Assembly (NCBI GenBank): GCA_036504975.1
Contig: DASXUF010000105.1
Coordinates: forward strand, 67,728-131,727
Origin: Candidatus Binatia bacterium
Lineage (GTDB): Bacteria; Desulfobacterota; Binatia; UBA9968
Reading direction: 5' to 3'
DNA length: 64,000 nucleotides
The notes under the pieces were generated by a model. That model was not told the origin of the DNA and ran no database searches. It was given only the letters and a program-made list of their open reading frames with translations. Made by a program: the position numbers and the translations under genes. This document shows positions 1,005-52,817 of the stretch, piece by piece. Each line of letters begins with the position of its first letter. Within the stretch, counting starts at the first letter, position 1.

Positions 1005-1644
1005 CCATCCGATCGTGCTCGAGGGGCTGAAGCAGTTGATCGAGCAACAGTCCGACTTGATGGTCTGCGGCGAGCTGGCGGACGGCCGGGCGACTTTGCA
1101 AACCGTGGACAAGTTGCGGCCGGATCTTGCGATCATCGACATCTCTCTCAAGGGCGTCAACGGCCTCGACGTCATCAAGGCGCTGAGAGAGCAATGTCCG
1201 GATCTGCCGGTCCTGGCTTTGTCCATGCATGACGAGACGCTCTACGCCGAGCGCGCGCTCCGCGCCGGGGCCAACGGCTACGTCATGAAGCAAGAAGCGA
1301 CGAAAAACTTGTTGAACGCCGTGCGCCAGCTTCTCGGCGGCGGCATGTATCTCAGCGAGAACGTCACCGCCAAGCTCTTGTCGCGCATGGCCAAGACCAA
1401 GCCCGGAGCGAAGCGCTCCGCTCTCGAGGGGCTGAGCGACCGCGAATTGCAGGTTTTCCATTTGATCGGGCAAGGCGTCGGCACGCGCAAAATCGCGGAG
1501 ACGCTGCGCTTGAGCGTGAAGACGATCGAGTCGCACCGGGAAAATATCAAAAGAAAACTCAAACTCGAAGACGCCGCCGAGCTGGTGCAGTACGCCGTCT
1601 CGTGGCAACAGAACGAAACTCCGCCCCACGCTATAAAGCAATAA
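943..1644 (+). CDS. Response regulator, NarL/FixJ family (REC + LuxR-type HTH)
   Basis: LLVDDHP receiver start and C-terminal LSDRELQVFHLIGQGVGTRKIAETL HTH. ATG at 943 is preceded by GGGAGG and overlaps the kinase stop. Confidence 0.85.
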   Translation: MSRAIPLQSTSSKKSILLVDDHPIVLEGLKQLIEQQSDLMVCGELADGRATLQTVDKLRPDLAIIDISLKGVNGLDVIKALREQCPDLPVLALSMHDETLYAERALRAGANGYVMKQEATKNLLNAVRQLLGGGMYLSENVTAKLLSRMAKTKPGAKRSALEGLSDRELQVFHLIGQGVGTRKIAETLRLSVKTIESHRENIKRKLKLEDAAELVQYAVSWQQNETPPHAIKQ

Positions 1645-1712
1645 ATCATAGTTCCAAGCTTCACGAAAAAACCTTCCCAGGCCGGTCGATCGCTCTCACA
1701 CCAAGAAAAGAA

Positions 1713-1746
1713 GGGCAGGCACAGGGGCCTGCCCCTACCGCATTTT
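1713..1746 (+). terminator. Putative intrinsic terminator after the response-regulator gene
   Basis: GGGCAGGC-acaggg-GCCTGCCC hairpin followed by ctaccgcattttcg (weak T tract). Confidence 0.4.
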
Positions 1747-1786
1747 CGACCATTTGATTTTCTTGAGAGGATCCATCGGGCAAACT

Positions 1787-1805
1787 CCTAGGGGAATCCC
1801 CTAGG
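1787..1805. promoter_or_regulatory. Perfect 19-bp palindrome CCTAGGGGAaTCCCCTAGG, candidate operator upstream of the EBP gene
   Basis: 9-bp perfect arms seen directly; 50 bp upstream of ATG 1857; followed by an A7 tract. Confidence 0.35.
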
Positions 1806-1856
1806 AAAAAAACAGGTTGTCACCCTATCCCGTGCCGATGTTATAAAGCGCGCTAA

Positions 1857-3056: not shown

Positions 3057-3068
3057 GGGAGTGTTCTA

Positions 3069-3542
3069 ATGGAAACTCAGAGCAAAAATATCTCTTCGCC
3101 CACGGTGCTCGTGGTGGACGACAATGAAACCGTATTGGACCTGCTCGACTTGCTCCTCTCCAACCATGGATCGACCGTCTTGCGGGCGCAAAGCGGCAGC
3201 CAATGCCTGGCCATCGTTCAGCGCGAACCCGTGGACCTGGTCATTCTCGACGTGATGATGCCCGGCATGGACGGAATCAAAGTCACCGCGGAGCTCAAGC
3301 GGACCATGCCGTCGCTGCCGATCATTCTCTTGACCGCCAAGGACGACCTGGCGACGCGCGCCGCCGCCATGGAGCTCGGAGTCAATGAATTCGTCACCAA
3401 GCCGATTCATAATCGGGAGCTGCTTTCCCGCGTCCGCACGCAGATTTCCACCCGCCGCTGGGAGATGGACATAGAACGAACGACCGCCAGCGTCGCGCGG
3501 CTGTCCGAGGCCTACGCCGGCAAAGTCGAAAGCAAAGCCTAG
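3069..3542 (+). CDS. Single-domain response regulator (CheY-like receiver)
   Basis: VLVVDDNE, LDVMMPGMDG and TAKDD...KP receiver motifs; 157 aa with no output domain. Confidence 0.8.
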   Translation: METQSKNISSPTVLVVDDNETVLDLLDLLLSNHGSTVLRAQSGSQCLAIVQREPVDLVILDVMMPGMDGIKVTAELKRTMPSLPIILLTAKDDLATRAAAMELGVNEFVTKPIHNRELLSRVRTQISTRRWEMDIERTTASVARLSEAYAGKVESKA

Positions 3543-3583
3543 CCGGGCTTTTTCATCCTTTCACCAGCCGAGGAGTCCGACAC

Positions 3584-4918
3584 ATGGACGTGTTGCAAGA
3601 GCTTTCGCAAAGCCTTTTAAACCTGAACTCCGGCCATTCTCTCCCCGTCGTGCTCCAGCGCATGGTGGCGCAAAAAATCCGCGAGCTCAGCGCGCTGACC
3701 GCGATCAACCGCAGCATCGCTTCTTCCCTCGACAGGGAAACTCTGCTTTCCCGGATCGCCGCCGAAGCAAAAAATCTTCTGGCGCTCGACGGCGTCGTGA
3801 TCCGTCTCGTCGACGGGAACCGGCTCATGCGCGCGGCCCACGCGGGCAGCGGCGAGCGGGCGCGAGCGAGGGTGGATATCGACAAGGACGAAAGCCTCAG
3901 CGCGACGGCGATCCGCGAGGATCGAACGATAGCCATTAAGAACGTTTCCGATGACGTCGCGCTAAGCGCCCAGTATCGAAAACGCTTGAGCGGGCGGGGT
4001 TGCCGGGCCGCCATTTGTCTGCCGTTGCGCGCGGCGGGGCGGCCGGTCGGCGCCATCGTCGGACTATCGGCAAAAGAGCGGGAGTTCCACCCGGACGAAG
4101 TCGATCTCATGACGGCCCTGGCGGACCAAGCGGCGATCGCGCTGGAGAAATCCATTCTCCTCGAAGAGACGAAGGCAAAATCGGACGAGCTCAAAAGAAT
4201 GGGCAAGGAGTTCGAACAGGCGCGCCGCGCCAAGGCGAAATTTATCTCCACGGTCTCGCACGAGCTCAGAACCCCGCTTCAAGTCATCATCGGCTACGCC
4301 GATCTGCTCAAGGACGGCATCGTCGGACAGTCGAAGGAAGAGCAAGGCCGGGTTTTGAGCACCATTCTTCAGAACGCCGAGATTCTCGACCGGTTGATCG
4401 GCAACGTTCTAGCGCTCACGAAGGCCGAAGTCAATAAAACCGTCCTCGATATCTCGACGGTCGAGGTCGCGGAGGTCATGGATCACATTCTTAGCTTCTC
4501 CCGCCGAATCGACCCGGACGGGCGGCTTAAAATTTTATTTGCGACGCCGAGCAATCTTCCGCCGATCTCGACCGACGTCGCCAAACTCGATGCGATTCTC
4601 CAAAACCTCGTCGGCAACGCCTGCAAGTTCACCCTTGAAGGCCGAATCGAAGTGCGGGTCGTCGATCTCCCTGGCCGGAACCGCTTGGAGTTTTCCGTCG
4701 CCGACACCGGCATCGGGATCGAGGAAAGCGAGCGGGAAAAAATATTCGATGAGTTTTACCAGGGCAAGCAGGCGCAAGCGACGAACCGCACCGGAGTCGG
4801 CCTTGGCTTGAGCATCGTGAAAAAATACCTGTCTCTTATGCAGGGAGAGATTCGGGTCGACGGCCGGCTCGGCAAAGGAACTACGTTTACCTTCACCCTG
4901 CCTTATTCTATTCCCTAA
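3584..4918 (+). CDS. GAF-domain sensor histidine kinase (GAF + HisKA + HATPase_c)
   Basis: H-box STVSHELRTPL, N/G boxes (LVGNACKF, DTGIGI, GVGLGLSIV), N-terminal GAF-like region. Confidence 0.8.
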   Translation: MDVLQELSQSLLNLNSGHSLPVVLQRMVAQKIRELSALTAINRSIASSLDRETLLSRIAAEAKNLLALDGVVIRLVDGNRLMRAAHAGSGERARARVDIDKDESLSATAIREDRTIAIKNVSDDVALSAQYRKRLSGRGCRAAICLPLRAAGRPVGAIVGLSAKEREFHPDEVDLMTALADQAAIALEKSILLEETKAKSDELKRMGKEFEQARRAKAKFISTVSHELRTPLQVIIGYADLLKDGIVGQSKEEQGRVLSTILQNAEILDRLIGNVLALTKAEVNKTVLDISTVEVAEVMDHILSFSRRIDPDGRLKILFATPSNLPPISTDVAKLDAILQNLVGNACKFTLEGRIEVRVVDLPGRNRLEFSVADTGIGIEESEREKIFDEFYQGKQAQATNRTGVGLGLSIVKKYLSLMQGEIRVDGRLGKGTTFTFTLPYSIP

Positions 4919-5759
4919 GGCCCTCTCGGTTGGGTCTTCTCGAACCGAGGGTATAGTCGTTTTCCTTCTCGGAGTCGGCTTTCTTTCGCTGCGGCGCGCG
5001 GAGCGGCGCCAGCCGATCGTACAAATCGAGCGCATCAATCACATCGCGCACATCGCGGGTGAGTTGTCTCTTGGAAAGAATCAGCTTAGTCGGGAGGTCG
5101 ATCGAAGAGCCGGATGGCCGCTTGCGGTCCATTCCGTTCTCGTTCTGCTCGCCGGCGAGACCGTCCGGCGTTTGTGTCTGGCGATAGGTCAGAGCGTCTG
5201 CGCCGGCGGGCGACGCTTGAGCGATCGGAGCGAGCGACAATGCCAGGCGCGTGCCGGCCGAGCCGCGCGCCAAAGATGTTGGTGTTGAAGCCGCAGCCAG
5301 CGCGTTGGTTTCCGACGCTTTGGGATCGCCGAATACCGCGGCATAGACGCGTTCTCCTATGTCCTTGCCCGTGAAGGCGCCGATCGCGGCGTTGACGACG
5401 GAAGTCGCCATGCTGATGAAGCCGCCGGCCCGCCCGTAAATCGCTCCGCCGATGATCCGCGCCACCCCACCGATGCCTTCGCCCGTCCACGCCCGATACA
5501 GCGTGGAGATCACCGGGAGATGCTGCAGCGGGTTCAACATGTCGAGGATATCTTTGAAGCTGAAATTCTCTTTGCTCCACCATTTGATAGCGCTCTTCTT
5601 TTCGGGCGGCGGAGCTGCTTTGGCCGTAGATGTTTTTTCACTTTCCTCTATTGGTTCCGCAGGCGGCGGCGCTTCGCGGAGCGCGCGCGTCGGCGCGGGA
5701 GGCGAAACCGGCCTGGTGACCGTTGCTCCTACAACCGGACAGATGCTCATATCCATCAT
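4908..5759 (-). CDS. Hypothetical protein (Pro/Ala-rich N-terminus, Gly-rich core), downstream of a predicted sigma-54 promoter
   Basis: 283-aa ORF starting ATGATG at 5759; no recognisable domain. Confidence 0.45.
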   Translation of the reverse strand: MMDMSICPVVGATVTRPVSPPAPTRALREAPPPAEPIEESEKTSTAKAAPPPEKKSAIKWWSKENFSFKDILDMLNPLQHLPVISTLYRAWTGEGIGGVARIIGGAIYGRAGGFISMATSVVNAAIGAFTGKDIGERVYAAVFGDPKASETNALAAASTPTSLARGSAGTRLALSLAPIAQASPAGADALTYRQTQTPDGLAGEQNENGMDRKRPSGSSIDLPTKLILSKRQLTRDVRDVIDALDLYDRLAPLRAPQRKKADSEKENDYTLGSRRPNREGLRE

Positions 5760-5804
5760 GATCGTCGCTCGCGAATGAAAAAATGGTAAGACCCTGCTCT
5801 ACTA

Positions 5805-5821
5805 AGCAGTTGCTGTGCCAG
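5805..5821 (-). promoter_or_regulatory. Predicted sigma-54 (-24/-12) promoter TGGCACagcaaCTGCT
   Basis: On the minus strand GG and GC are separated by exactly 10 nt; about 45 nt upstream of ATG 5759. Confidence 0.5.
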
Positions 5822-6044
5822 AGAGAAAAGCTCTACGGAATTCGAGTTTTTAGAAATAGTCGCGAGACAGGGATCGCCGTGAAGAGGCAATTCTTGCCTA
5901 TCTGGCAGAAATTACCTCCGGCGTTTTAGCTTGAAGAGACCGGCCTCCTTGACGCTGCCGTACTGCGCGATCAGACAGAGACTCTTCAACTGGCCGATTT
6001 CCATAAGTTAAAAAATACTTGAGCGTTTGTTTGATAGTTCAAGA

Positions 6045-6073
6045 TTGACACGATTTCAAGTTCGCTTTATGGT
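6045..6073 (+). promoter_or_regulatory. Putative sigma-70 promoter TTGACA-N17-TATGGT upstream of the ubiD-like gene
   Basis: Hexamers read directly; about 33 nt upstream of ATG 6106. Confidence 0.45.
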
Positions 6074-6105
6074 GCATGCGTCGTTCACGAATAGGTGACT
6101 TGCCC

Positions 6106-25012: not shown

Positions 25013-25086
25013 TGGGCCCACCTGGATTCGAACCAGGGACCGACCGGTTATGAGCCGGTAGCTCTAACCAGCTGAGCTATGGGCCC
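25013..25086 (-). tRNA. tRNA with CAU anticodon (elongator Met or lysidine-type Ile2), 74 nt, CCA not encoded
   Basis: Folds as GGGCCCA/TGGGCCC acceptor, GCTC/GAGC D-stem, ACCGG-CTCATAA-CCGGT anticodon arm, CCTGG-TTCGAAT-CCAGG T-arm. Confidence 0.85.
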
Positions 25087-42059: not shown

Positions 42060-44336
42060 ATGTCCATCCAACTTACAAGCGTCCGGCAGAATCCTCAGCC
42101 AAAAATGAATCCCGCCCAAGATCGCGTCATCGATAAGCTCAGGATCGTTCTGATCAAGCCCTCCAAGTACGACGACGACGGCTACGTCATTCGCTTCTGG
42201 CGCGGGGTTCTCCCCAGCAATACCCTCAACGTTCTCCACGGGTTGACCGAAGACGTGAAGCAGCGCCGGGCTCTCGGTGACATCGACCTCGAAGTCGTGA
42301 CGTTCGACGAGACGGCGGAAAAATTGCCGGTCAAAAAAATCATTCGCTGGAGCCGCCGCACCGGCACCAAGCTGCTCGTCTGCCTCGTCGGCGTCCAGAC
42401 CAACCAGTTTCCGCGCGCCTTCGACCTGGCCAAGCGGTTCCGCGCGCACGGCATCGACGTCATGATGGGCGGCTTTCATACCAGCGGGACCGTCTCGATG
42501 CTGGGCGATCAGGAGCCCGATATTCAGGAGCTTTTCCGCGAGGGTATCACCGCAATTTCCGGCGAGGTGGAAGGAAAATGGGAGGGTATCCTCGCCGATT
42601 GCCTCGCCGGCCAACTGAAGCCCCTCTACCATTACGCCGGGGACCTGCAAAACCTCGTGGACATCGGCGACGCGCCGCTGCCGGTGACGAGTCCGAAGAC
42701 GATGAAGCACTTCGCCCAGCCGGCCTTCGGCACGGCGGACACCTCGAGAGGCTGTCCCTTCGCCTGCTCGTTCTGCACGATCATCAACGTCCAGGGGCGC
42801 AAGATGCGCGAGCGCAGCCCGGAGAGCATCGCCGCGATGGCGCGGAGAAATTATCACGAGCACGGTGTGACTTTTTACTTCTTTACCGACGACAACTTCG
42901 CGCGCAAGAAACTCTGGCGCGAAACCTTTGAGGCGATCATCAAGCTCCGGGAAGAAGGTATCAAGATCTCCTTCATGATGCAGGTGGACCTCGCCAAGAA
43001 GCCCAAGGACTTCGTTGCGCTCGCCGCCAAGGCGGGCTGCTCGCAGGTCTTTATCGGCATGGAGAGCGTCAATCCGGAGAATCTCAAGGCCGAAGGCAAG
43101 GCGCAAAACAAAGTCGAAGAGTACCAGGGCATCATCAAGGAATGGCACGACGCCGGCATCGTGGTTCATACCGGCTACATCATCGGCCTTCCCTGGGACA
43201 CGAAGGAAGGCGTGAAGCGCGACGCCGAGTATTTGATGAACGTGATCCAGCCGGATCAGGCTTCATTCTTCATGCTGACGCCGCTGCCGGGCTCGCAAGA
43301 CCACAAAGAGATGAAGCAGCGCGGCGAGTGGATGGACCCGGATTTCAACAAACGCGACTCCTTTCACGCCACCATTCATCATCCGCACATGAACGCGGAG
43401 GAATGGACGCGGGCCTACGAGGACGCCTGGAAAGCGTTCTACAGCAAGGAGAACATGATTCGCGTTCTCTCCCGCTGGAGCCACAAGCCCAGGGCCTACT
43501 GGAACCTCATGTCGGTCTTCTTCTGGTACAAGAACGCGGCGTTGATCGAAAAGGAGCACCCGATGATCGCGGGCTTTTTCCGGCTAAAAGACCGGACCGC
43601 GCGCCGTCCCGGATTTGCCGTCGATCCTCTGCCGGTCCACATGTGGAAGCGCTCCAAAGAAATCGCCCGTCTTTTCATCTCGTGGGCCAAGTTTTTCAAA
43701 GAGATGGAAGAAGTCTGGCTCCAGACGCGGAAAAAAAGCGACCGGGAAGAGCGCTGGCTGGAAGAGATTCAGAGGATTCAGGGCGAGATCTGGCAGTCGC
43801 TCAAGATCGCCGAATGGCAACAAACCTACAACAATGCCAAGGCGGCGCTGCCCGCCAAGGCCAAAGCCCTGCTCGACCCGTTTGAAGAATTGTCCTCGAA
43901 GGTCCTGGTCAGCCGTGACGACTTGAATTCATTCCTGCGGAAGTGGGCGAGGCTACCGAAGCGCCTGCAAAAATTGCGCAACCGTGTTGGGTACGACGGC
44001 GAAGCCGCGCGCCGGCTGGAAGAAATGTCGCGCATCCACAATACCGCGTGGGCGGGAAGAAAAATTCAGGAATGGCAGGAGGCTTACACGCGCCTGCGAA
44101 AAGTTCTCCCGTCCAAATTCAGCCTGCCGCAAATGAAGTTCGATGCCTTTACCAACCGCGCCTTTTATTCCCGCCAGGACCTGCAGAAGTTTTGGGCCGC
44201 GAACGTGGACCATCTGAAAGGCATGCGGCTCTGGAAGGTCCGCCCGTGGAAGCTGGTAAAATATCTCGCCAAAGATTTTTTCATTAGCACGTCCTTCGCC
44301 TCATCCTTCAAGTCCGCCACCCGGTCGCAATACTAA
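42060..44336 (+). CDS. B12-binding domain-containing radical SAM protein (class B), with ~250-aa C-terminal extension containing an internal repeat
   Basis: N-terminal cobalamin-binding region, CPFACSFC radical SAM cluster motif, repeated IAEWQQTY.../IQEWQEAY... segments. Confidence 0.7.
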   Translation: MSIQLTSVRQNPQPKMNPAQDRVIDKLRIVLIKPSKYDDDGYVIRFWRGVLPSNTLNVLHGLTEDVKQRRALGDIDLEVVTFDETAEKLPVKKIIRWSRRTGTKLLVCLVGVQTNQFPRAFDLAKRFRAHGIDVMMGGFHTSGTVSMLGDQEPDIQELFREGITAISGEVEGKWEGILADCLAGQLKPLYHYAGDLQNLVDIGDAPLPVTSPKTMKHFAQPAFGTADTSRGCPFACSFCTIINVQGRKMRERSPESIAAMARRNYHEHGVTFYFFTDDNFARKKLWRETFEAIIKLREEGIKISFMMQVDLAKKPKDFVALAAKAGCSQVFIGMESVNPENLKAEGKAQNKVEEYQGIIKEWHDAGIVVHTGYIIGLPWDTKEGVKRDAEYLMNVIQPDQASFFMLTPLPGSQDHKEMKQRGEWMDPDFNKRDSFHATIHHPHMNAEEWTRAYEDAWKAFYSKENMIRVLSRWSHKPRAYWNLMSVFFWYKNAALIEKEHPMIAGFFRLKDRTARRPGFAVDPLPVHMWKRSKEIARLFISWAKFFKEMEEVWLQTRKKSDREERWLEEIQRIQGEIWQSLKIAEWQQTYNNAKAALPAKAKALLDPFEELSSKVLVSRDDLNSFLRKWARLPKRLQKLRNRVGYDGEAARRLEEMSRIHNTAWAGRKIQEWQEAYTRLRKVLPSKFSLPQMKFDAFTNRAFYSRQDLQKFWAANVDHLKGMRLWKVRPWKLVKYLAKDFFISTSFASSFKSATRSQY

Positions 44337-44420
44337 TTTCCTCCGTTTTAATTTCCTTCTCTCTTAGAGATTTATTCAGCCGTGACTGTAGGGTTGGGCT
44401 GTGATAATATGTGCTAGGAG

Positions 44421-44681
44421 TTGATGGAAGGTTGTATGGCCCGACCAGATTTACTGAAAAAATTAAAGGAACTGACGCCGGCCGAACGGCTCAGCGTTGC
44501 GGAGGCTGCTTTGCGTCTCGTTCGGGAAGATCTTCGGAAAACAACTCGCCCGGCAAAAGAAAAGAACCTCGCTAAGGCGGCAAAGGCTCTACTACCGGAC
44601 TATAAGTCTAAGGGCGAGCTCACTGTCTTTACTGCGCTTGATGGCGAGGATTTTTGTGAAAAGGAAGTGAAATCTGGCTAA
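44421..44681 (+). CDS. Putative antitoxin / addiction-module component (helical, no known fold assignable)
   Basis: 86-aa ORF with RBS AGGAG; ends 6 nt before the MazF-like reading frame opens. Confidence 0.4.
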   Translation: MMEGCMARPDLLKKLKELTPAERLSVAEAALRLVREDLRKTTRPAKEKNLAKAAKALLPDYKSKGELTVFTALDGEDFCEKEVKSG

Positions 44682-44686
44682 TCAAT

Positions 44687-45001
44687 TTGGACCCGACGAT
44701 TGGCGCCGAGATCAAGAAAACCCGCCCGGCAGTCATCGTCAGCGATGACGCGATTGGAATCCTGCCGCTCAAAGTAATTGTCCCGATTACCGAATGGAAA
44801 GAACGCTATGCCGTGGCGCCTTGGATAGTCCGATTAGATCCCGACGGACAAAATGGGCTACAGAAGCCTTCTGCCGCCGACACATTTCAAGTCCGCTCGT
44901 TAGCCCAGGAAAGATTTGTGCGACGACTTGGAAAGCTCCCGGACCGTGTAATGGATTCAATCGCAAAAGCTCTCGCTGTAGTATTAAGCTTTGATATTTA
45001 A
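44687..45001 (+). CDS. MazF/PemK-family endoribonuclease toxin-like, apparently 5'-truncated
   Basis: ...INLDPTIGAEIKKTRPAVIVSDDAIG...VIVPIT matches MazF strands 1-3. Homology (KGSEIWLINLDPT) extends upstream of TTG 44687 to an in-frame stop at 44657 with no canonical start. Confidence 0.55.
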   Translation: MDPTIGAEIKKTRPAVIVSDDAIGILPLKVIVPITEWKERYAVAPWIVRLDPDGQNGLQKPSAADTFQVRSLAQERFVRRLGKLPDRVMDSIAKALAVVLSFDI

Positions 45002-45191
45002 ACGCATGCGCCTCGTGCAAAGTCCGACCGTGGAAGCTGTTAGATTCGAACACCGGCTTACCGAAGAAGTAGATAAAGTTAGCCATGAAATCACTAAGTT
45101 TAAAGCCGACCTCATTCGCTGGATGTTCATCTTCTGGGTCGGTCAGATCGGCGTAATCACCGGAATCCTGTTCGCGTTCTTCAAACGATAA
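44991..45191 (+). CDS. Small hypothetical protein with C-terminal TM helix
   Basis: 66 aa (or 61 aa from ATG 45006); ...WMFIFWVGQIGVITGILFAFFKR. Confidence 0.35.
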   Translation: MIFKRMRLVQSPTVEAVRFEHRLTEEVDKVSHEITKFKADLIRWMFIFWVGQIGVITGILFAFFKR

Positions 45192-45264
45192 GTCTTTCAG
45201 TCTTCTCCCTCAGCGCCTCCGCGGTGAGATACGAATTCCTTTTCACCACTGAGACACCGCGCGG
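45190..45264 (+). repeat. Structured repeat R1 (AAGTCTTTCAGTCTTCTCCCTCAGCGCCTCCGCGGTGAGATA...TTCACCACTGAGACACC)
   Basis: ~70-nt unit ~80% identical to R4 at 48131-48198; core CCCTCAGCGCCTC(C/T)G(C/T)GGTGA also at 45625-45652 and 45669-45695. Confidence 0.6.
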
Positions 45265-45610
45265 CTACGCCGCAACCAAAGTAGAAACAGACATTTCACC
45301 ACGAAGGTCTTAGCACACGAAATTTCTTCCCCTTGGCGTCCTTTGCGCCTTTGCGCGAGATAACGCATTTCGGTCCTTCTCTGTTATCGCGCCAAGATGC
45401 CAAGCTCGTAAAGTTTTACTTTCAGGCATAGTATTACGAAAGTCAAAAGTTATAAAGTTTACGAATCCTTCGTGGCCTTCGTGCGCTTCGTGGTGAGATC
45501 GTATTTTCTTGTCGATCCGGCAACTGAGGATTGGTGCGCAAGAAAATTTGCGCAAACCGCGAAAACTCTCAGGCATAGTATTACAAAGTCCGCAGGAGGG
45601 TTTGTTTTAT

Positions 45611-45700
45611 TCCTGATCTCCGCGCCCTCAGCGCCTCCGCGGTGAAAATTCCTTGATTTTACTCTGTGCCCTCAGCGCCTCTGTGGTGAGATATCTTAAG
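45611..45700 (+). repeat. Tandem core repeats R2/R3 (CCCTCAGCGCCTCCGCGGTGAAAATTCC / CCCTCAGCGCCTCTGTGGTGAGATATC) followed by palindrome GGGTTAACCC
   Basis: Read directly. Confidence 0.6.
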
Positions 45701-46448
45701 GGTTAACCCAAACTCCGTTGTAAATACGCTCGACCTCCGGAATCGTCCGCGCCGCCTGCTCCGCCCTGAATCTTTCATCCGCTGTTTTTACATGGCCGTT
45801 GAGATAGGCCGTGTCGCCGATAAAAGCCACGCTCACCCCCATAACGTTCCACCTGCCGAAGGCTTCATGGATGTCTGCCTCGACCTTTCTCCACCGGGCC
45901 TCGACTTCTTCATACGATTCGGCCGGTTTTTCCCGGGGAAGAAACATGGCGTCGTCCCTTTTCACGTACACCACCGACTTGAGTTTGTTTGAGCGAACGA
46001 TCAGCCAATCGCCCTCCGAGCCGACGACGTTGAGCCTGGCTCCCGACCCAACCTCGTCCACGACGGAAGCCGAATTATTCGGCCGTGACCGCACCGAAGT
46101 TCGCCGGATGGTCTGATAGATTCCCGGTTCCGCAGGCCGCCGTACAAACGGCCTCTCGGAAACCTTTGCCTGTCGCTGAGCGCGTGATGAAGTTTGAGGT
46201 TTGCTTGGAGAAATCTTCGCGCTAGGTTTTGCGGGCTTCTCTTGATCTTCGCTGATCTCAGGAAGGTCGGATGAAGATTCCGGCGGCGGCGTTGTTGGCT
46301 CCTGAGTCTGCGGGCGCGGCTCCTCCTGCCGCGAAGCCACATCGGGCGCCTCCGTCGATCCGGGATAGAAAACCCATTTCCCGACGAAGAAGACAAAAAG
46401 TGCTGCGACGATCACGGCGGCCGTCGCCATCAGCGCCTGACGAGTCAT
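45696..46448 (-). CDS. Membrane-anchored protein with Pro-rich linker, SH3b-like and C-terminal BON domain
   Basis: N-terminal TM AAVIVAALFVFFVG, ...GSGARLNVVGSEGDWLIV (SH3-like), BON-like VSVAFIGDTAYLNGHV... Confidence 0.55.
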   Translation of the reverse strand: MTRQALMATAAVIVAALFVFFVGKWVFYPGSTEAPDVASRQEEPRPQTQEPTTPPPESSSDLPEISEDQEKPAKPSAKISPSKPQTSSRAQRQAKVSERPFVRRPAEPGIYQTIRRTSVRSRPNNSASVVDEVGSGARLNVVGSEGDWLIVRSNKLKSVVYVKRDDAMFLPREKPAESYEEVEARWRKVEADIHEAFGRWNVMGVSVAFIGDTAYLNGHVKTADERFRAEQAARTIPEVERIYNGVWVNP

Positions 46449-46452
46449 AGTT

Positions 46453-47027
46453 CTAGCTACGCGACTCCAGTTTACCAGACTTTAACTGCTTCATCGCCGC
46501 TTCAAGCACCTCCTCACTAATCCACCGCTTCTTCCCAAGCTGGATGATGCGGCTCTCCGCTGACCCGAGATCGAGAAGCTCCCGCCGATGAGCTTCCAAC
46601 ACCAACTCGAGACTTCGGAGACAAGTGATGCCTTTTACCCGGGCGACTTCCCACGCCCGCTCGTCATCTATCAGCACCACGTCTGCATCAAGTTCTTCCG
46701 CAAGGGCTAATGCTTGAGACTCCCCTGCTCCGAGCCGCTCCGCCAGGTAAAGTTTCAATTTCGCGTCTTCCTTGACAGCGATTCACGTTGGCGGGGTTCT
46801 ACCCAGTGGGCCAAGGAGCGAAGTTTTTTAAGAACGGATTCTCTCTGGATCTTTGGAATCTGTAGTTTAGGCCGCCTAACCACCCGCTCGTATTCGTCAA
46901 ATATCTCAGGCGAAAGAAAGAGAGCGACTCGTTTATTAAACGCGAGTTCGAGAAGCAAGGCGGGGATGCCTCTATCTGAGATGAGGCCGGAAACCACCAC
47001 ATTGGTGTCATAGACCGCCTTGAGCAT
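46453..47027 (-). pseudogene. PIN-domain (PIN_3/VapC-like) toxin gene interrupted by a frameshift near 46757-46785
   Basis: N-half MLKAVYDTNVVVSGLIS...VEP (frame A) continues as ...KEDAKLKLYLAERLGAGESQALALAEELDADVVLIDDE (frame B); the fused sequence fits the PIN_3 pattern with 4 acidic positions. Confidence 0.55.
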
Positions 47028-47033
47028 GCAAGA

Positions 47034-47342
47034 TCAGGAGGCTAGCTTCTCTCTCCGTTCCTCCCGCGCCGCTCGTATCTCCGCGTTGATTTCGTCCAGA
47101 CTGAGCTTCGCGACACCGGTTCGACGCGCCTCTTTGCGAATTTTTCTGAGCGCGACCGGTTCTTTTATCTTGAGAACGCTGCGCACGAAATCCTCATACC
47201 CGAGGATGACAGCAGCGGCCTCTCCTTTGCGGGAGACCACAAACCGCTCTTTATTTCCTCTTACCCTTTTTAGAATCTCCCCGAATTCCTTCCGCGCGAC
47301 TAAAGCGGGTATTGTTTTCACTTTTAAGACACCTCGTGCCAT
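47034..47342 (-). CDS. Phd/YefM-type antitoxin
   Basis: KTIPALVARKEFGEILKRVRGNKERFVVSRKGEAAAVILGYEDF; RBS AAAGGAG 8 nt before ATG; immediately upstream of the PIN gene. Confidence 0.65.
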   Translation of the reverse strand: MARGVLKVKTIPALVARKEFGEILKRVRGNKERFVVSRKGEAAAVILGYEDFVRSVLKIKEPVALRKIRKEARRTGVAKLSLDEINAEIRAAREERREKLAS

Positions 47343-47378
47343 TATCGTCTCCTTTTCAGTTTACACTTCTCAATACGA

Positions 47379-47597
47379 AATATATCAAGCTTGCCGCACT
47401 CTTACAAAGCCGGCGCAAGAGAAACCAATGCCTTCACCGAGGCTCGGAGATGACGTCCAGCAGCGCGGGGAGCTTTGTCCCTTTCCCCTTAGGGTGGACA
47501 CCGAAGCCCTGCGCAACCTTGGGAAAATCTACCACCGGGTCCGCTCACGTGCATGCCGATGCCGGCGTTCTCGACCGGCCGCTTGCGGATGGCCAGC
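47379..47597 (+). pseudogene. Degenerate duplicate of the 3' end (~65 C-terminal codons + 30 nt downstream) of TPP-enzyme gene 49994..51772, with an internal ~55-nt deletion
   Basis: 31-nt identical block AATATATCAAGCTTGCCGCACTCTTACAAAG at 47379-47409 and 49940-49970, then ~75%-identical colinear sequence to ~47597 / ~50216. Confidence 0.7.
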
Positions 47598-47758
47598 CTT
47601 TTAACGGAGGCCGGGTGTTGCCGACGAATAAGTTGCATGATTTTTTAAAGTTCTGGAAGTGAAAAAGCGGTAACGAAACGCCTTCGGCCGATTTAATACG
47701 ACGGAGACGAGGATAAGCTGGTGCCCGGTGATGAAGGGGATACGGGTTGCTTCGGGCA

Positions 47759-48013
47759 TTATACGATAACCGTATAGCCTTCAGGAGCAACCGGTCCGGC
47801 AAAGAAAACGTAGGTCATCTTTTGAGGATTTCGCTCGCCAAAGCCACGGTTTACTTCCACCAGGTCCCGGCGGTTGTGGCTATGATCCAACACACGGCCA
47901 AAAAGAGGGCCTCTAACCTTGTCAACTTCTGTGACCTCAACGAGAACCCACTCGTTGGGATATCGCTGCTCGATTTCTGCGATGGAAAGCGCTTCCCCAA
48001 ATTTAGATTTCAT
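47759..48013 (-). CDS. Small hypothetical protein (84 aa)
   Basis: ATG start; no assignable domain. Confidence 0.4.
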   Translation of the reverse strand: MKSKFGEALSIAEIEQRYPNEWVLVEVTEVDKVRGPLFGRVLDHSHNRRDLVEVNRGFGERNPQKMTYVFFAGPVAPEGYTVIV

Positions 48014-48130
48014 GGCTTCAAAAATTATACCACGATATCTTCAAAGGCAAGGCGGCTCTGGGAAGACCTTTTTGCCTCTCAAGGCCCAGAGGCGTGATCA
48101 CCTGAATCCTCTTTGTATTCTCCAAGCGCT

Positions 48131-48198
48131 AAGTCTTTTAATCTTCCCTCTCAGCGCCTCGGCAGTGAGATATCCGATTTCACCGCAGAGACACGGAG
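48131..48198 (+). repeat. Structured repeat R4 (AAGTCTTTTAATCTTCCCTCTCAGCGCCTCGGCAGTGAGATA...TTCACCGCAGAGACACGG)
   Basis: Colinear with R1, with paired substitutions in the predicted stems. Confidence 0.6.
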
Positions 48199-48209
48199 TT
48201 TGCAGAGAG

Positions 48210-49043
48210 TTAGTGGAGACGCGCGGCGTTTTTTCTGAGGTTCTCGACCTGCCTGAGTATCTCGTCCGCGTCGGCTGCCTCGGGGGCGAGTCTGAGATAC
48301 GTCTCAAAGTCATCGATCGCTTGGGAAAAGTGTTCGAGCTTAAGATAGAGCAAGCCGCGGTCGCGGATCTCTTGGGGCGAAGTCGGATCGATGATCACCA
48401 GACGCTCGGCCGTGGAGAGGGCTTTGGGGAAATCTTCCCGGCGCAGATAGATCGCCTTCAAGTTGTTCAGCATCCGCTGGATAATGTCTCTAGTCGATAC
48501 CGGCGCGAGAAAATCAGGGTGGAAGGCGACCTTGCCGCCGTAGAGACGGTCGAGCATTCCTTGCAGCTCATCGGCCGTGCGAACTTCGCCGTTGTCGAAA
48601 GGGTCAATTACAATCTCGCCTTCGTCGCCGACGTACTTGACCAGAAAATGACCCGGGAAACCGATACCGTGCAGTTTTAGCTCGACCCTTCTGGCTACCT
48701 CCATATATAGGACGGAGAGCGTGATCGGTATGCCTTTCCGGCGCTCGATGACGTCGTTCAAAAAGCTATTTCTGGGATCGTAATAATCGTCCCGGTTGCC
48801 GCGATAGCCTTCTTGGGTAAAGAGGACCTGATTGAGGCAGGCGATCAGACGATAGGGGCTGTTTTCTCCAGCCGAGCGGTCGCGAGCCACAGCCGCAAGC
48901 TGATCCATCCGCGAGAGATACGTCTCGATCCGCAGGTCCGGATAGGTTTCCTGAGCGATGGCCAGAGCCGCGCGCCCGAGGTCGATCTTGTCGTCCGGAA
49001 GCGCAACGGCCGCGCGAAAATTCCTGTGGCGATCGTCCGCCAT
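48210..49043 (-). CDS. SirB1/YchA-like transglutaminase-like + TPR protein
   Basis: GIPITLSVLYMEVARRVELKLHGIGFPGHFLVKY resembles SirB1-family core; 277 aa. Confidence 0.6.
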   Translation of the reverse strand: MADDRHRNFRAAVALPDDKIDLGRAALAIAQETYPDLRIETYLSRMDQLAAVARDRSAGENSPYRLIACLNQVLFTQEGYRGNRDDYYDPRNSFLNDVIERRKGIPITLSVLYMEVARRVELKLHGIGFPGHFLVKYVGDEGEIVIDPFDNGEVRTADELQGMLDRLYGGKVAFHPDFLAPVSTRDIIQRMLNNLKAIYLRREDFPKALSTAERLVIIDPTSPQEIRDRGLLYLKLEHFSQAIDDFETYLRLAPEAADADEILRQVENLRKNAARLH

Positions 49044-49094
49044 TCAAATTTCCTCTCATTTAGCCGATCATTAACTAAAATTTTTCCGTTTACG

Positions 49095-49340
49095 TCATTT
49101 GGGATGAGATCGAATGTTGAGCAAGTAATAAATATCGCCCTCAATTCGAAAATAAAAACGCCAATCGCCGTTTACCCGAGCCTGCCAGATGTCTTGGGCC
49201 TCATCGTATTTCTTAGCACGAAGTGAGGGGTGGCGCATGTTTTGGAGCAAAAGAGCCGCTTGTTTTTGAAAGAGCTTTTGAATATGCGGTGGGGCTTTGG
49301 CATAACTCCGTAAGAACTGCGGAGCGTAGTCGAGACGCAT
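49095..49340 (-). CDS. ParE/RelE-family toxin (type II TA)
   Basis: 81 aa; ...WQARVNGDWRFYFRIEGDIYYLLNIRSHPK matches the RelE/ParE C-terminal fold motif; ATGA overlap with the upstream antitoxin. Confidence 0.7.
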   Translation of the reverse strand: MRLDYAPQFLRSYAKAPPHIQKLFQKQAALLLQNMRHPSLRAKKYDEAQDIWQARVNGDWRFYFRIEGDIYYLLNIRSHPK

Positions 49341-49609
49341 TAGGCGGATTTCTTTTTGAGTTTCCTGACCTCTCGATGTAACGATCGAACCAAGGACTTA
49401 GCGGAGTTAAAGGGGCCGTAGGTTTTCCCCTCCTTGACCTCCTTGACGGCCTGGGCCAGCTCTCGATCAAGCATAGCCTTTGGCGCAAGAGTAATTTTTT
49501 TTCCCTCTACTGTCGCCTCTAGCAGATCTCCCACAGCCACCTCCGCCTTCTTCCGTATTTCAGCGGGCAGGGTTACTTGGTATTTCTCTTTGACTTTTAC
49601 CAACGCCAC
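49340..49609 (-). CDS. AbrB/MazE/SpoVT-type (swapped-hairpin) antitoxin
   Basis: MALVKVKEKYQVTLPAEIRKKAEVAVGDLLEATVEGKKITLAP. Confidence 0.7.
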   Translation of the reverse strand: MALVKVKEKYQVTLPAEIRKKAEVAVGDLLEATVEGKKITLAPKAMLDRELAQAVKEVKEGKTYGPFNSAKSLVRSLHREVRKLKKKSA

Positions 49610-49702
49610 CGTGATTCCTCCATAATTACAAAGGAAGAAGTTTGCTTGACTTAGTATATGGTTAATCCAAGGCTTGTCAAATGGCTTACAACGGGCCCTC
49701 GG

Positions 49703-49876
49703 TCACTGATCTGCTGCAAGGCGCTGCAGAGTGGCAAGGCTGATCCGTTCCCCACGAGACAGCGTCTCAGAGATCTTTCTGCCCTCGCGTACGACAGCGT
49801 AAATGATGATGCCGTGAATAATGGCCGCGCCAACCAGAAAAAGGGTGTTAACCCAGACGAGTGTCAGCATTTCCAT
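49703..49876 (-). CDS. Small membrane protein (57 aa, one TM)
   Basis: RBS GGAAGGAG then ATG; MEMLTLVWVNTLFLVGAAIIHGIIIYAVV... Confidence 0.4.
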   Translation of the reverse strand: MEMLTLVWVNTLFLVGAAIIHGIIIYAVVREGRKISETLSRGERISLATLQRLAADQ

Positions 49877-49993
49877 ATTAGCTCCTTCCCCATTCACTCA
49901 CCCCTACTTCCAGCCGGCTAGGTGGCTTGGTCAGTGAAAAATATATCAAGCTTGCCGCACTCTTACAAAGTCAGCGCAAAACAAATCAATTTC

Positions 49994-51772
49994 TCAGCGC
50001 GGCTCGGCGATCACGTCAACCAGCGCCGGGAGTTTTTTCTCCTTGACAAATTTCAGGGCGCGCTCGATCGCCGGGCGAACGTCGGCCGGGTTCGCGATCG
50101 GCCCCTCGGCGTGGACGCCGAAGCCCTCGGCGATTTTTGCGAAATCCACCGCCGGATCGTCGACGTGCGTGCCGATGCCGGCGTTTTCGACCGGCCGCTT
50201 GCGGAACTTGGCGACCTCGATACCGTGCTCTTCCGAATTGTAGAAGGACTGGTTGTTGTGCATGACGATGAGCAGTGGAATTTTGTGCTTGGCCGCCGTC
50301 CAGAGCGAGCTCGAAGTCATCAACAGGTCGCCGTCCGCTTGGATGTCAATCGATAGTTTGCCGCTGTCTTTCAGTGCCAAGGCCGCGCCGATCGCAGCGC
50401 CCGAGCCGTAGCCCACGCCCGCCCCACCGCTGGCGCCGAGATATTGATTGGGCTTGGTGAAGTCCCACAGGCGCCGCGCCCAACCGTTGGACGTGCCGTT
50501 CACCAAAACCCAGTCCTCTTTCTTGATCGCTTCGCCGAGCTCGAGCGCCAGCCACGCCGTCGAAACCTGCTTCAACGAGCTTTTGGCTTCGGCGTCGGCG
50601 CGCCACTTGGCGCGGCGCGTTTTATGCTTTTCTCCCAGCTCTTTTTGCCTGGCTTCGATGCGCCCTTTGTTTTTGCCGTCGCTGCCGAGAAGCTCGCGGC
50701 AGAGGCGCGTCAATTCCGGCACGGCCACCGAGGTGTCGGCGCACATCGGGAGATCCAGCGCCTGCAGCGCGTGATAGTCGCCGGCCCAGGAGTGCACGAG
50801 CATGTCGTTCATCGAGATGCTTACGAGCTTGACGCCGGGCGAAGTGACGTACTCGCACGCCCGGGTTTGTTTGCTGACCGTCGTCAGCGAGCCGTAAAGA
50901 TCCGCCACGTCGAGCGCCAGGATCACATCGGCGTTTTTCAACAACTCCCGCGCGCCGTCGGTCGCGTCCAAGGGATGGGTCGTGGGGAAGTTAAAACGCG
51001 CGCCCTTGTCGACGACCGGAATCGCCAGAAGCTCCGCCAGAGCGACCAGGGCGGGAACCGTCTTCGGGTTGCGGCCGAGCGTGTCGGCGATGATGAGCGG
51101 CGCTTGCGCGTTCACCAGCAACTCGGCCGCTTTGCGTAGCGCTTCCGGATTCGCCTGCATCGGCGCCAGCGGCGCATAGCGCCTGACGTCGGGGATCTCG
51201 AGCTGAGACGTGAGCGCGTCTTCCTGGATGTCGGCATCGTAGTTGATATAGACCGGCGCCATCGGCTCCGTGGTGGCGAGGCGGTAGCCGCGGATGAAAG
51301 AATCCGGCACGTCGGCCAGGGAATACGGCTGGTCGTCCCATTTCACGTAGTCCCGCACCTGGTTGCCCTGCACGAGAGCGGTATGGATCCAATCGATCCG
51401 CGGCCGCCGCCGCTTGGTGTTCATCGGGCCAGTGCCGCCGAGAACCATCACGGGAACCCGGTCGATGTAGGCGTTGAAAATCGCCATGCTCGCGTGCTGC
51501 AGGCCGACCATGTCGTGCGCGATGGCGATCATCGGCTTGCCCTTGGCCTTGGCGTAGCCGTGAGCGACCGCCACCGAAATCTCCTCGTGATTGCAGAAGA
51601 TCACTTCGGGCATGTAGTTGCCGCCGTAGTTGACGATCGAATCGTGAATGCCGCGAAACGTCGCGCCCGGGTTGAAGGCCGCGTACTCGATATCGAAGGC
51701 CTTCATCAAATCGACGATCACGTCGGAGCCGTACTCCGCTCTCTTCTTTTCCACCGGTGCCGCTCTAGCCAC
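49994..51772 (-). CDS. Thiamine-diphosphate-dependent enzyme, acetolactate synthase large-subunit / sulfoacetaldehyde acetyltransferase-like
   Basis: 592 aa with Pyr, central and PP domains (GDG...N TPP motif region ...GSGAAIGAALA...); its 3' end is duplicated at 47379-47597. Confidence 0.75.
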   Translation of the reverse strand: MARAAPVEKKRAEYGSDVIVDLMKAFDIEYAAFNPGATFRGIHDSIVNYGGNYMPEVIFCNHEEISVAVAHGYAKAKGKPMIAIAHDMVGLQHASMAIFNAYIDRVPVMVLGGTGPMNTKRRRPRIDWIHTALVQGNQVRDYVKWDDQPYSLADVPDSFIRGYRLATTEPMAPVYINYDADIQEDALTSQLEIPDVRRYAPLAPMQANPEALRKAAELLVNAQAPLIIADTLGRNPKTVPALVALAELLAIPVVDKGARFNFPTTHPLDATDGARELLKNADVILALDVADLYGSLTTVSKQTRACEYVTSPGVKLVSISMNDMLVHSWAGDYHALQALDLPMCADTSVAVPELTRLCRELLGSDGKNKGRIEARQKELGEKHKTRRAKWRADAEAKSSLKQVSTAWLALELGEAIKKEDWVLVNGTSNGWARRLWDFTKPNQYLGASGGAGVGYGSGAAIGAALALKDSGKLSIDIQADGDLLMTSSSLWTAAKHKIPLLIVMHNNQSFYNSEEHGIEVAKFRKRPVENAGIGTHVDDPAVDFAKIAEGFGVHAEGPIANPADVRPAIERALKFVKEKKLPALVDVIAEPR

Positions 51773-51837
51773 TGTTGAAATCCCCTTTCTGAATCGCAGT
51801 TATTTCTGGAAAGTTCTTTCTCGTCCGACCGTCTTTT

Positions 51838-51882
51838 CCCTCACCCTTCCCTCTCCCGGAGGGAGGTTAGAGTGAGGGTAGG
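51838..51882. repeat. GC-rich hairpin element CCCTCACCCTTCCCTCTCCCGGAGGGAGGTTAGAGTGAGGGTAGG (same family as 7599-7681)
   Basis: Shares the CCCTCACCCTTC(A)CCCTCTCCC core. Confidence 0.55.
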
Positions 51883-51920
51883 ACGCGTGAGTAGAAGAGT
51901 TGAACCGTACTGACGCTTTT

Positions 51921-52817
51921 TTAATCTCGTTTCTGCAACAACCCCCGCTGGTAAAACAATTCCAGCGTCTCCAGCAGATCGCCTTCCCTGCCGCCGGTAT
52001 CCGAGGGCCGGCCGCAATCCAGCGCGGCGATCTGCTCGAGGATTTTTGCCGTCGCGGGGGCGATCACGGCTTCCAATCCGTGATATCGGAAAGTCTGGCG
52101 CAGCTCGCGCATCTCCTCGGCGCGCCGGCCCGCGTGAATCGGCAACGCGGCGATGCTCCCGCCGACCTTGCCGACCAGGCCGGGAAAACTCTCTTCGTAG
52201 CGGCGCATGATTTCCTGCAATAGATCAAACTTCCTGGCGCCGAGCAACAGCTCCGTGAGAAGTCCCTGCAGGCCTTTCGTCAGCCCGGCGTAGACGATCT
52301 TAAAGGCTGAGGCTTGGCCGATTTTTGCGCCGAGCACTTCTATTTTCAGGCCGCACTCCCCGAGTCCGCGCAGCTCTTCGGCCCCGGGGCCGGAGACGTA
52401 GACCGAGGCGCGCGCCAGCTTGGTCGCCGAGCCGATGATGCAGCCGTCGACAAAGGCCGTCTGCGCCGGCGCGAGCGCCTCTGCGACGGCGGCGGCCGTC
52501 ATCGGAGAGATCGCGTTGGCGTCGAGATAGAGACAATCCTTCCTTCCGACCTTTGCCAGCGCCTTGCCGACCTGCGCGGCGATCTTCCGCGCCGCGGAGG
52601 GAACGACGATGGAAACAATGAGATCGGCATCCGAGACCAGCCGCCGAAGCGGCACCGACTCGACGCCGGCGTTCTCCGCCCGTTTTTGCGTGATCTCGCT
52701 CCGGCCTCGAGACGAAGTCAGCACCTCGAGTCCATGTTCCTTCAAAAGCTTGGCCCAGTGATAGCCCATCTCGCCGATGCTCAGGATGCCGATTTTTTGA
52801 AACGCCGCCACCTTCAT
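51921..52817 (-). CDS. NAD(P)-binding oxidoreductase (HIBADH/6PGDH-like Rossmann + DUF1932-like C-terminus)
   Basis: GILSIGEMGYHWAKLL dinucleotide-binding start. Confidence 0.5.
   Translation of the reverse strand: MKVAAFQKIGILSIGEMGYHWAKLLKEHGLEVLTSSRGRSEITQKRAENAGVESVPLRRLVSDADLIVSIVVPSAARKIAAQVGKALAKVGRKDCLYLDANAISPMTAAAVAEALAPAQTAFVDGCIIGSATKLARASVYVSGPGAEELRGLGECGLKIEVLGAKIGQASAFKIVYAGLTKGLQGLLTELLLGARKFDLLQEIMRRYEESFPGLVGKVGGSIAALPIHAGRRAEEMRELRQTFRYHGLEAVIAPATAKILEQIAALDCGRPSDTGGREGDLLETLELFYQRGLLQKRD

Follow-up and report, generated by a model that had tools for sequence, protein, structure and literature searches.

How does the end of a conserved gene come to lie, decayed, 2.3 kb away from the gene to which it belongs? 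The question is raised by the gene for a thiamine pyrophosphate (TPP)-dependent enzyme in a stretch of 64,000 nucleotides (nt) of contig DASXUF010000105.1, hereafter called the window, from a Candidatus Binatia bacterium. Downstream of the intact gene, behind a segment with genes of its own, a second and degenerate copy of the 3' end is located upstream of phd, the antitoxin gene of a toxin-antitoxin (TA) module. We estimate a probability of roughly 70% that this second, left copy once was the 3' end of the TPP gene and was displaced while it remained joined to the phd-pin module, and that it is the scar of sister-strain DNA that entered an eroding TA islet by recombination anchored in the core gene. 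An earlier note, made from the letters of the window alone, had proposed that the segment was inserted at, or recombined into, the 3' end of the TPP gene, duplicating the target, and that the left copy then decayed.

A decayed second end of the TPP gene

A repeat finder, alignment with MAFFT and blastn against the whole window agreed that positions 47378-47590 are a degenerate copy of positions 49939-50205. The repeat unit consists of the last 212 nt of the TPP gene, a 23-nt spacer and a 31-nt motif (AATATATCAAGCTTGCCGCACTCTTACAAAG, hereafter the 31-mer), so that the stretch shared past the stop codon is about 55 nt long. Blastn returned two collinear matches, 47378-47483 to 49939-50044 (83% identity over 107 nt, E 3e-25) and 47485-47589 to 50102-50205 (80% over 105 nt, E 7e-21), and no other match to the left copy within the window was better than E ~1. 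Over all 234 aligned columns the two copies are 75% identical, as the earlier note had estimated. They are further distinguished by a 57-nt (19-codon) deletion in the left copy at ~47485/47486, between the two blastn matches, and by a +1 frameshift near 47545.

The minus-strand translation of the left copy is that of the TPP C-terminus (RKRPVENAGIGMHVS / DPVVDFPKVAQGFGVHPKG..KLPALLDVISEPR), ending in SEPR and a stop codon like the TPP enzyme itself. Its 5' limit corresponds to TPP position -212, counted back from the end of the gene (window ~47590), and the homology upstream of 47597 was not significant (score 19, against a shuffle mean of 22). The limits given in the earlier note, which had the copy reach 47597 with 30 nt of shared downstream sequence, are corrected accordingly. 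No inverted repeats were detected by the repeat finder at the ends of the segment. A second assembly (L001) has the identical structure, with 1 mismatch in 14,977 nt.

For comparison, we used contigs with close TPP orthologs and 80 further metagenome loci (of at least 571 TPP-relative loci), mapped with the window proteins. Three contigs (L095, L096 and L097), each from a different sample, were reached through the closest homolog of Phd (P0126). In these contigs, an intact TPP gene (94.8% amino acid identity over 504 residues) is followed by the stop codon, the spacer, the 31-mer with 1 mismatch, and phd, while the segment corresponding to 47591-49938 is missing. The distance from the stop codon to the ATG of phd is 90 nt in the three contigs and 88 nt in the left copy of the window. 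Window positions 51509..49938 align continuously with positions 1-1573 of L095, and window positions 47484..47065 with its positions 1466-1884; the right copy is 90.5% identical to L095, continuously through to 49938. Thus, the three contigs carry the uninterrupted allele with a single repeat unit each, which identifies the left copy as a relic of that junction and places 47591-49938 between two versions of it. The proposal that the segment was recombined in at the 3' end of the TPP gene is borne out by this comparison with genomes that lack the segment. No locus with both copies adjacent and without an insert was found among the relatives, and the similarity of the copies persists in proper alignment.

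With L095 as the third sequence, substitutions could be assigned to the lineages of the left copy, the right copy and L095. The left-only substitutions at codon positions 1, 2 and 3 numbered 10, 10 and 15, which fits a uniform distribution (chi-square P 0.49). The right-only substitutions numbered 1, 0 and 5, and the L095-only substitutions 1, 0 and 4; combined (2/0/9), these changes are biased to the third position (P 0.002). This pattern supports neutral decay of the left copy, with approximately 17-20% change in addition to the frameshift and the deletion, and purifying selection on the right copy and on L095, and the earlier suggestion of decay thereby gained a quantitative basis. The raw excess of third-position differences between left and right (9/4/18) had been considered as a sign of a foreign functional allele; this interpretation was revised, since the three-way test puts the third-position excess in the functional lineages. 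All sampled TPP alleles are at a similar distance from the left fragment (80-86% identity), and none stands out as the nearest donor.

Displaced gene ends in sister strains

In more than 50 Binatia loci, the TPP gene is followed after 11-20 nt by a SirB1-like gene and, after another 30-50 nt, by a radical-SAM gene on the opposite strand. Extra DNA in this interval was observed only in the sublineage with a TPP identity of at least 93% (window/L001, L002 and L005-L008), and its content varies from strain to strain, including TA pairs, HEPN/MNT-type genes and a 930-amino-acid (aa) SNF2 helicase. Several type II TA modules are located between the two core genes, and erosion is evident from truncated toxins and an orphan antitoxin. 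On its gene content, the interval is thus a strain-variable TA/defence islet between two core genes. Since the SirB1-like gene, which lies between the two copies in the window, is the ancestral neighbour of the TPP gene, the incoming DNA would have been sister-strain chromosome rather than a mobile or foreign element. As an observation on the wider neighbourhood, the TPP operon of relatives, in contig L005 (positions 1-6102) and the P0005 contigs, has a nonribosomal peptide synthetase-type cluster, with condensation, AMP-binding and PP-binding domains and a second TPP enzyme, a few kb upstream of it.

An unbiased self-comparison of each close relative, together with targeted alignments, revealed further displaced 3' ends. 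In L002, the TPP gene is followed by a 67-aa gene, m64 (the small gene that also follows the right 31-mer in the window), a TPP fragment (~-127/-82), the SNF2 helicase, another TPP fragment (-108), the 31-mer, m64, a DUF4258 pair and SirB1. In L007, the order is TPP, SNF2, a TPP fragment (-108) and then the sequence that directly follows TPP in L006. In L096, TPP, the 31-mer and phd-pin are followed by a TPP fragment (-246, with an internal deletion) and then by downstream sequence of the L006 type. The radical-SAM gene, on the other side of the islet, shows the same phenomenon: L006, L007 and L008 contain duplicates of its 3' end of 122, 161 and 202 nt, 89-92% identical, around different TA cassettes, with the fragment adjoining the old neighbour SirB1. 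The window itself has a radical-SAM fragment (-120..-78); the corresponding junction of L006 is at -122, and a homologous antitoxin is found there.

In all cases, the gene body runs into an intact 3' end, and the displaced older 3' end keeps its former downstream neighbour. Judged from these arrangements, the displaced fragments form a stratigraphy of arrivals, in which the event in the window is one of a series in this lineage. At their 5' side, the TPP fragments begin at -212, -108 (two cases with the same junction), ~-127/-82 and -246, and those of radical SAM at -122/-120, -177 and -202; these differences between events argue against a fixed attachment (att) site.

The stand-alone SNF2/ResIII/Helicase_C protein of 930 aa is located at the TPP 3' end in both L002 (9026-11818) and L007 (11799-14591). 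Its distal junction is identical in the two (...atcc|CCGATTGAAAA, with the TGA stop codon of SNF2 inside the TPP fragment), and the downstream contexts differ. The 57-nt deletion of the window starts at TPP -108/-109, after GAGGGG and before CCGAT, which is the same nucleotide as this junction (L002 11811, L007 14584); given the number of breakpoints compared, this may be a coincidence. The fragments in L002 (11811-11918), L007 (14584-14687) and L096 (1207-1345) have in common a variant, with TGAAAA in the place of TGCGAA and PIEKP(S/A)E in that of PIANPA(D/E), which was present in no intact allele examined. This suggests that the three displaced fragments descend from one older allele, though their flanks differ. 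In L007 (16021-17051), the SirB1-like gene is broken: a piece of it is joined to a homolog (95%) of p84, the last gene between the copies in the window. Approximately 560 nt and, behind them, a 44-nt TPP fragment (-90..-48) separate this homolog from the rest of SirB1. The linkage of p84 to a TPP fragment, as in the window, thus occurs there too.

We infer the following direction and order of events. The ancestor of the window allele would have had the arrangement that L095-L097 still have, namely TPP, the 23-nt spacer, the 31-mer and phd-pin. A sister-strain block with a TPP 3' end, spacer, 31-mer, m64, abrB/mazE-relE, the SirB1-like gene and p84 would then have recombined in, with one homologous crossover inside the conserved TPP gene. 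The other join would have been illegitimate, at TPP -212, or equivalently the event may have been a single crossover of a circularised fragment. The TPP gene would have kept an intact 3' end from the incoming DNA, leaving the old 3' end redundant and free to decay neutrally. That the donor-type arrangement existed is seen from L002 copy c3, where a TPP end is followed by the 31-mer, m64 and, further on, SirB1. Of the duplication of the target, as claimed in the earlier note, the two copies stand, but it is more likely that the incoming DNA brought its own TPP 3' end and 31-mer than that a true target-site duplication took place.

A longer history with which all junctions agree may have started from TPP-SirB1-radical SAM, into which cassettes accreted, as in L006, before phd-pin arrived at the TPP end, as in L096. 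A deletion from codon 81 of pin to the middle of a DUF3368 gene would have produced the junction at ~46785, with loss of SirB1 and inactivation of both toxins. The arrival of the sister-strain block would finally have restored SirB1 and displaced the resident 3' end.

It is also conceivable, although we regard this as doubtful, that the displaced 3'-end fragments act as portable right-hand homology arms. Any cassette located between the body of a core gene and a spare 3' end of that gene could then be moved by ordinary RecA recombination, with no need for an integrase, into all strains in which the gene is present, regardless of its downstream context. The signature of such arms would be the identical SNF2|TPP(-108) junction in front of two contexts, in L002 and L007, together with the recurrence at both convergent core genes. 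If duplicated gene ends were indeed the transfer vehicle, this would explain how small islets spread without integrases or transposases, and homology arms would constitute a systematic recombinase-free route for TA and defence cassettes.

A predicted promoter in both copies and the genes around it

The 31-mer is present exactly twice in the window, once in each copy, as the earlier note had stated, and 100 shuffles gave 0 matches even at 3 mismatches. On the minus strand, a promoter scan identified TTGTAA-N17-TATATT (9/12 to consensus), with a TG one base before the -10 box, in both copies. The findings support the prediction of a sigma-70-type promoter with an extended -10, and thus the promoter function that had been suggested for it. 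In L089-L093, where genes for close homologs of Phd (82-94% identity) have unrelated surroundings, CTTTGTAAGcGTGtcGCtAcCcTGATATAT precedes phd at an equal distance. The -35 box, the spacing and the TG-extended -10 are as in the 31-mer, and the differences are confined to spacer bases; the architecture is kept upstream of phd in L095-L097 as well, again with variable spacer bases. Since the same architecture precedes phd homologs in unrelated contexts, the predicted promoter appears to travel with phd. On this comparison, the 31-mer would be the promoter with which phd-pin came, and its occurrence before m64 would be secondary, as a captured TA promoter.

In the left lineage, 0 changes were observed in the 31-mer, compared to 12 in the adjacent non-coding sites. 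At 20% change per site, the probability of no change in 31 nt is 0.8^31 = 0.001. The 31-mer would be under selection in both copies because it serves as the promoter of phd in the left copy and of m64 in the right copy. The junction of the 31-mer with m64 is common to the window and L002 copy c3. With the L002 variant allowed, the 31-mer had 0 matches in species-representative genomes and 0 in viral contigs. The spacer contains a perfect 10-bp palindrome, GCAAGCTTGC, at 49950-49959 and 47389-47398; its candidacy as a conserved operator was rejected, since its conservation does not extend to L002 or L089. A near-consensus promoter-like site (TTGACA-16-TATACT, 11/12) is located at 49653-49680 on the minus strand, upstream of the abrB/mazE-relE pair. 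The pair thus probably has its own promoter, and the right 31-mer would mainly serve m64.

The features of the locus are listed in Table 1. On the minus strand, the order is TPP, 31-mer, m64, MazE/AbrB and RelE/ParE-like, SirB1-like, p84, TPP fragment, 31-mer, Phd, PIN, DUF3368 remnant, BON-domain protein and PemK/MazF-like pair, followed by radical SAM on the plus strand. Five TA-type modules are located between the TPP and radical-SAM genes, two of them with truncated toxins. The G+C content is approximately 50% over ~44000-50000, compared to 60-65% in the flanks.

Table 1. Repeat copies, promoters and genes between the TPP and radical-SAM genes, in window positions
Feature	Position	Strand	Remarks
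TPP-dependent enzyme gene, intact, core gene	49994..51772	-	592 aa from GTG start; 586 aa in public assemblies; Pfam TPP_enzyme_N/M/C end to end
Repeat unit, right (functional) copy	49939..50205	-	TPP -212 to stop, 50205..49994; spacer 49971-49993; 31-mer 49940-49970
31-mer, right copy	49940..49970	-	Predicted -35 TTGTAA 49968-49963; 17-nt spacer; predicted TG-extended -10 TATATT 49945-49940; precedes m64
m64, first gene between the copies	49703..49876	-	57-aa open reading frame (ORF), 64 aa from GTG 49897; AAGGAG ribosome-binding site; no family match
AbrB/MazE-type antitoxin	49340-49609	-	Pfam MazE_antitoxin
RelE/ParE-like toxin	49095-49340	-	RelE_StbE match weak (E 9e-4, below cutoff)
SirB1-like gene, between the copies	48210..49043	-	Pfam Transglut_core2 and TPR_9
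p84, last gene between the copies	47759..48013	-	84-aa ORF; no family match; homolog (95%) in L007 inside broken SirB1
Left copy, coding part: TPP C-terminus pseudogene fragment (-212 to last codon)	47434..47590	-	Relic stop codon 47431-47433
Left copy, decayed spacer	47410-47430	-	Between relic stop codon and left 31-mer
31-mer, left copy, upstream of phd (proposed native position)	47379..47409	-	Predicted -35 47407-47402; predicted -10 47384-47379
phd antitoxin, intact	47034-47342	-	Pfam PhdYeFM_antitox
pin', 90 aa	46755-47027	-	Pfam PIN_3; PIN truncated at residue 81 of ~139; phd-pin module homology stops at 46786
DUF3368 PIN-like toxin remnant (3' two-thirds)	46453..46784	-	88% identical to L006 14468-14788
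Radical-SAM fragment (-120..-78)	45000..45042	+	84% to 44217-44258; far side of PemK/MazF-like pair
PemK/MazF-like TA pair	44421-45001		
Radical-SAM gene, conserved core gene bounding the other side	42060..44336	+	Convergent

Orthologs of the TPP enzyme at 76-100% identity were present in more than 80 Binatia contigs, and the protein places the window in Candidatus Binatia. An exact-protein look-up with the 592-aa translation gave no match, since public gene calls use the 586-aa start. The N-terminus of m64, read by eye, is a hydrophobic stretch, and the gene is a small predicted membrane-protein ORF; two further copies were found, both in L002 (94-96% aa identity). Between p84 and the junction with the TPP fragment lie approximately 165 nt of unassigned sequence (47591-47758). 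In L006, the DUF3368 gene encodes 165 aa and is preceded by a UPF0175 antitoxin; the remnant in the window lacks both the 5' third and the UPF0175 partner. The junction between pin' and DUF3368 at ~46785 is thus probably a deletion junction that left both toxins dead and phd an orphan antitoxin.

A tRNA scan detected no tRNA near the locus, the sole tRNAs of the window being located at 617-707 and 25013-25086, and no Rfam family was matched over 44000-52000 at E <= 1. A second direct repeat of ~108 nt (48091-48194 and 45150-45257, 78% identity) is located downstream of SirB1 and between the genes for the BON-domain protein and the PemK pair. It includes a 21-nt core, TCTCACnGCnGAGGCGCTGAG, of which four copies were found (45209-45229, 45627-45647, 45671-45691 and 48150-48170), all on the minus strand, compared to 0.03 expected. 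All copies are within the variable interval, and among the fetched loci exact matches were present only in L001; the second repeat may represent either a dispersed element of small size or a motif that marks cassette boundaries. Another sequence, ACTTTGTAATACTATGCCTGA, occurs twice on the minus strand, at ~45585 and ~45435, where non-coding DNA separates BON from the PemK pair.

Alternative explanations and known systems

A similar architecture could have been produced by site-specific integration. Integrase-less derivatives, either satellites mobilised in trans or elements resembling cis-mobilizable elements (CIMEs), would have targeted an att site in the TPP 3' end and carried a surrogate 3' end, and each new arrival would have moved the older units outward. 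In e14, with its 163-bp icd' (PMC6379469), the target gene is intact through a new 3' end and is followed by cargo and a pseudo-3' end, and the same arrangement is found in the window. Tandem accretion in gene 3' ends is documented for integrase-less CIMEs and microCIMEs (PMC7563491), as are tycheposon arrays with partial tRNAs (bioRxiv 10.1101/2020.12.28.424599). The identity of the SNF2 junction in L002 and L007 despite different downstream contexts would favour this explanation, and so would a block with 41/43 identity at the repeat boundary; however, the same 43-nt block is kept among all orthologs anyway. The boundaries of the fragments differ between events at both TPP and radical SAM, so that there is no common att core, and the insert in the window carries SirB1, an ancestral chromosomal neighbour. 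The genes called in the inserts of the window, L001, L002 and L005-L008 include no recombinase, transposase or integrase, and no integrase was found in up to 10 kb of flank in the relatives. Nor was a recombinase found in the whole window: a motif scan of ORFs of at least 120 aa gave two matches, one inside DXP synthase and one overlapped by a GDPD phosphodiesterase (exact frame unconfirmed), where Pfam detected housekeeping domains only, and other large ORFs encode RpoD, DnaG and similar proteins. The varying boundaries, the lack of a recombinase in the inserts and the presence of SirB1 argue against a single att site or a dedicated integrative element and fit recombination anchored in the conserved gene; we therefore consider site-specific integration unlikely. 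An insertion of the transposon type was rejected, as the repeat is ~270 nt long rather than 2-15 bp, inverted repeats are lacking at the ends and no transposase was found.

The two copies might also have arisen in situ, by a tandem duplication that started at TPP -212 and included the downstream genes; different genes would then have been lost or replaced in each unit, and the TPP fragment, being redundant, would have decayed. Such a history would be in keeping with the neutral decay of the left copy, and the second direct-repeat pair is interleaved with the TPP pair, as two tandem units predict. However, the 21-nt core present four times in the interval means that the second repeat may be a dispersed element, and it was set aside as proof of tandem alleles. 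The duplication would have to be followed by at least three further precise replacements or deletions, including the exchange of phd-pin for m64-abrB-relE exactly after the -10 box and the loss of a second SirB1, and it leaves unexplained why the same pattern occurs with unrelated cargo, the SNF2 helicase, in sister strains. We regard it as improbable. Finally, chance similarity is contradicted by the E-values of the two matches and by the shuffles of the 31-mer, and an assembly chimera of two strain variants, conceivable because all sequences are metagenome-assembled and L001 and the window are nearly identical and may represent one population, is hard to reconcile with a left copy that is a decayed pseudogene rather than a co-occurring functional allele and with analogous structures assembled independently from different samples (L002, L007, L096, L006 and L008), so that we give this pair of explanations almost no weight.

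Recombination of sister-strain DNA into the TPP gene end must itself be weighed against several points. No donor allele with the exact junction on the p84 side was found, and no mosaic breakpoint was seen at -212 in the TPP gene of the window. The neutral divergence of the left copy (~17-20%) exceeds the third-position divergence between the right copy and L095, which implies that the event is old or that the functional copy was later replaced by recombination. The 17 identical spacer bases of the 31-mer exceed what a promoter alone needs (P ~0.02), a hint that the copies may have undergone gene conversion or that the spacer contains an operator. All data, moreover, are from metagenome assemblies. 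In a mirror scenario, the imported piece would be the relic block itself, 815 nt that reach from TPP -212 to codon 81 of pin and that came from a donor similar to L095 to lie downstream of p84; this would make it a coincidence that the relic is located 2.3 kb from its homolog.

If the scar marks the arrival of sister-strain DNA, as we propose, the locus is a dated and layered record of how a TA/defence islet was built and eroded between two core genes in an uncultivated phylum, and a case in which the promoter of a TA module has been reused for an unrelated gene, m64. The scar is real, but events of this type are known, and in a TA hotspot, where genes turn over, such a by-product is fairly ordinary. 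For annotation, short pseudo-3' ends beside core genes mark past insertions.

ICESt-type elements target the 3' ends of fda, rpsI and rpmG, genes at which integrative and conjugative elements, integrative and mobilizable elements and CIMEs are known. The insertion of e14 and phage 21 at icd in E. coli is a case within a metabolic gene, where e14 contains a 163-bp icd' pseudo-copy (PMC6379469). As at icd, the insertion in the window lies within the last ~160-210 nt of the gene, a diverged replacement 3' end is supplied, and the displaced original persists as a pseudogene beyond the insert. Unlike at icd, genes for an integrase, an excisionase or a phage are lacking, the position of the boundary varies (-82 to -246), and the insert holds the ancestral neighbour of the gene. 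CIMEs (1.2-13 kb) and microCIMEs (130-220 bp) accrete in tandem in gene 3' ends, and in both these and tycheposons integrase-less cargo is bounded by partial target 3' ends, with newcomers displacing older units outward, as appears to be the case here (PMC7563491; bioRxiv 10.1101/2020.12.28.424599). Those systems differ in having a fixed att core and a cognate tyrosine recombinase from a neighbouring or incoming element, neither of which was found at this locus.

A mechanistic parallel comes from experiments in E. coli, where circular molecules that integrated by a single crossover left the inserted DNA flanked by a duplication of 109-950 bp of the homologous locus; in homology-facilitated illegitimate recombination (HFIR), the other end is joined at microhomologies of 3-10 bp (PMC3240628). 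Such Campbell-type integration or HFIR has the same one-sided homologous anchor in a resident gene, and the range of 109-950 bp matches the 43-277 nt observed here. However, these were laboratory events, and classical HFIR usually deletes recipient DNA, whereas the events described here were deduced from natural variation. In Photorhabdus, TA islets without mobile-element genes have been proposed to spread by recombination at flanking core genes and then to erode (PMC13617665), and the passages of that study retrieved by term search do not mention duplicated ends of the flanking core genes, such as those described here, as a footprint of acquisition.

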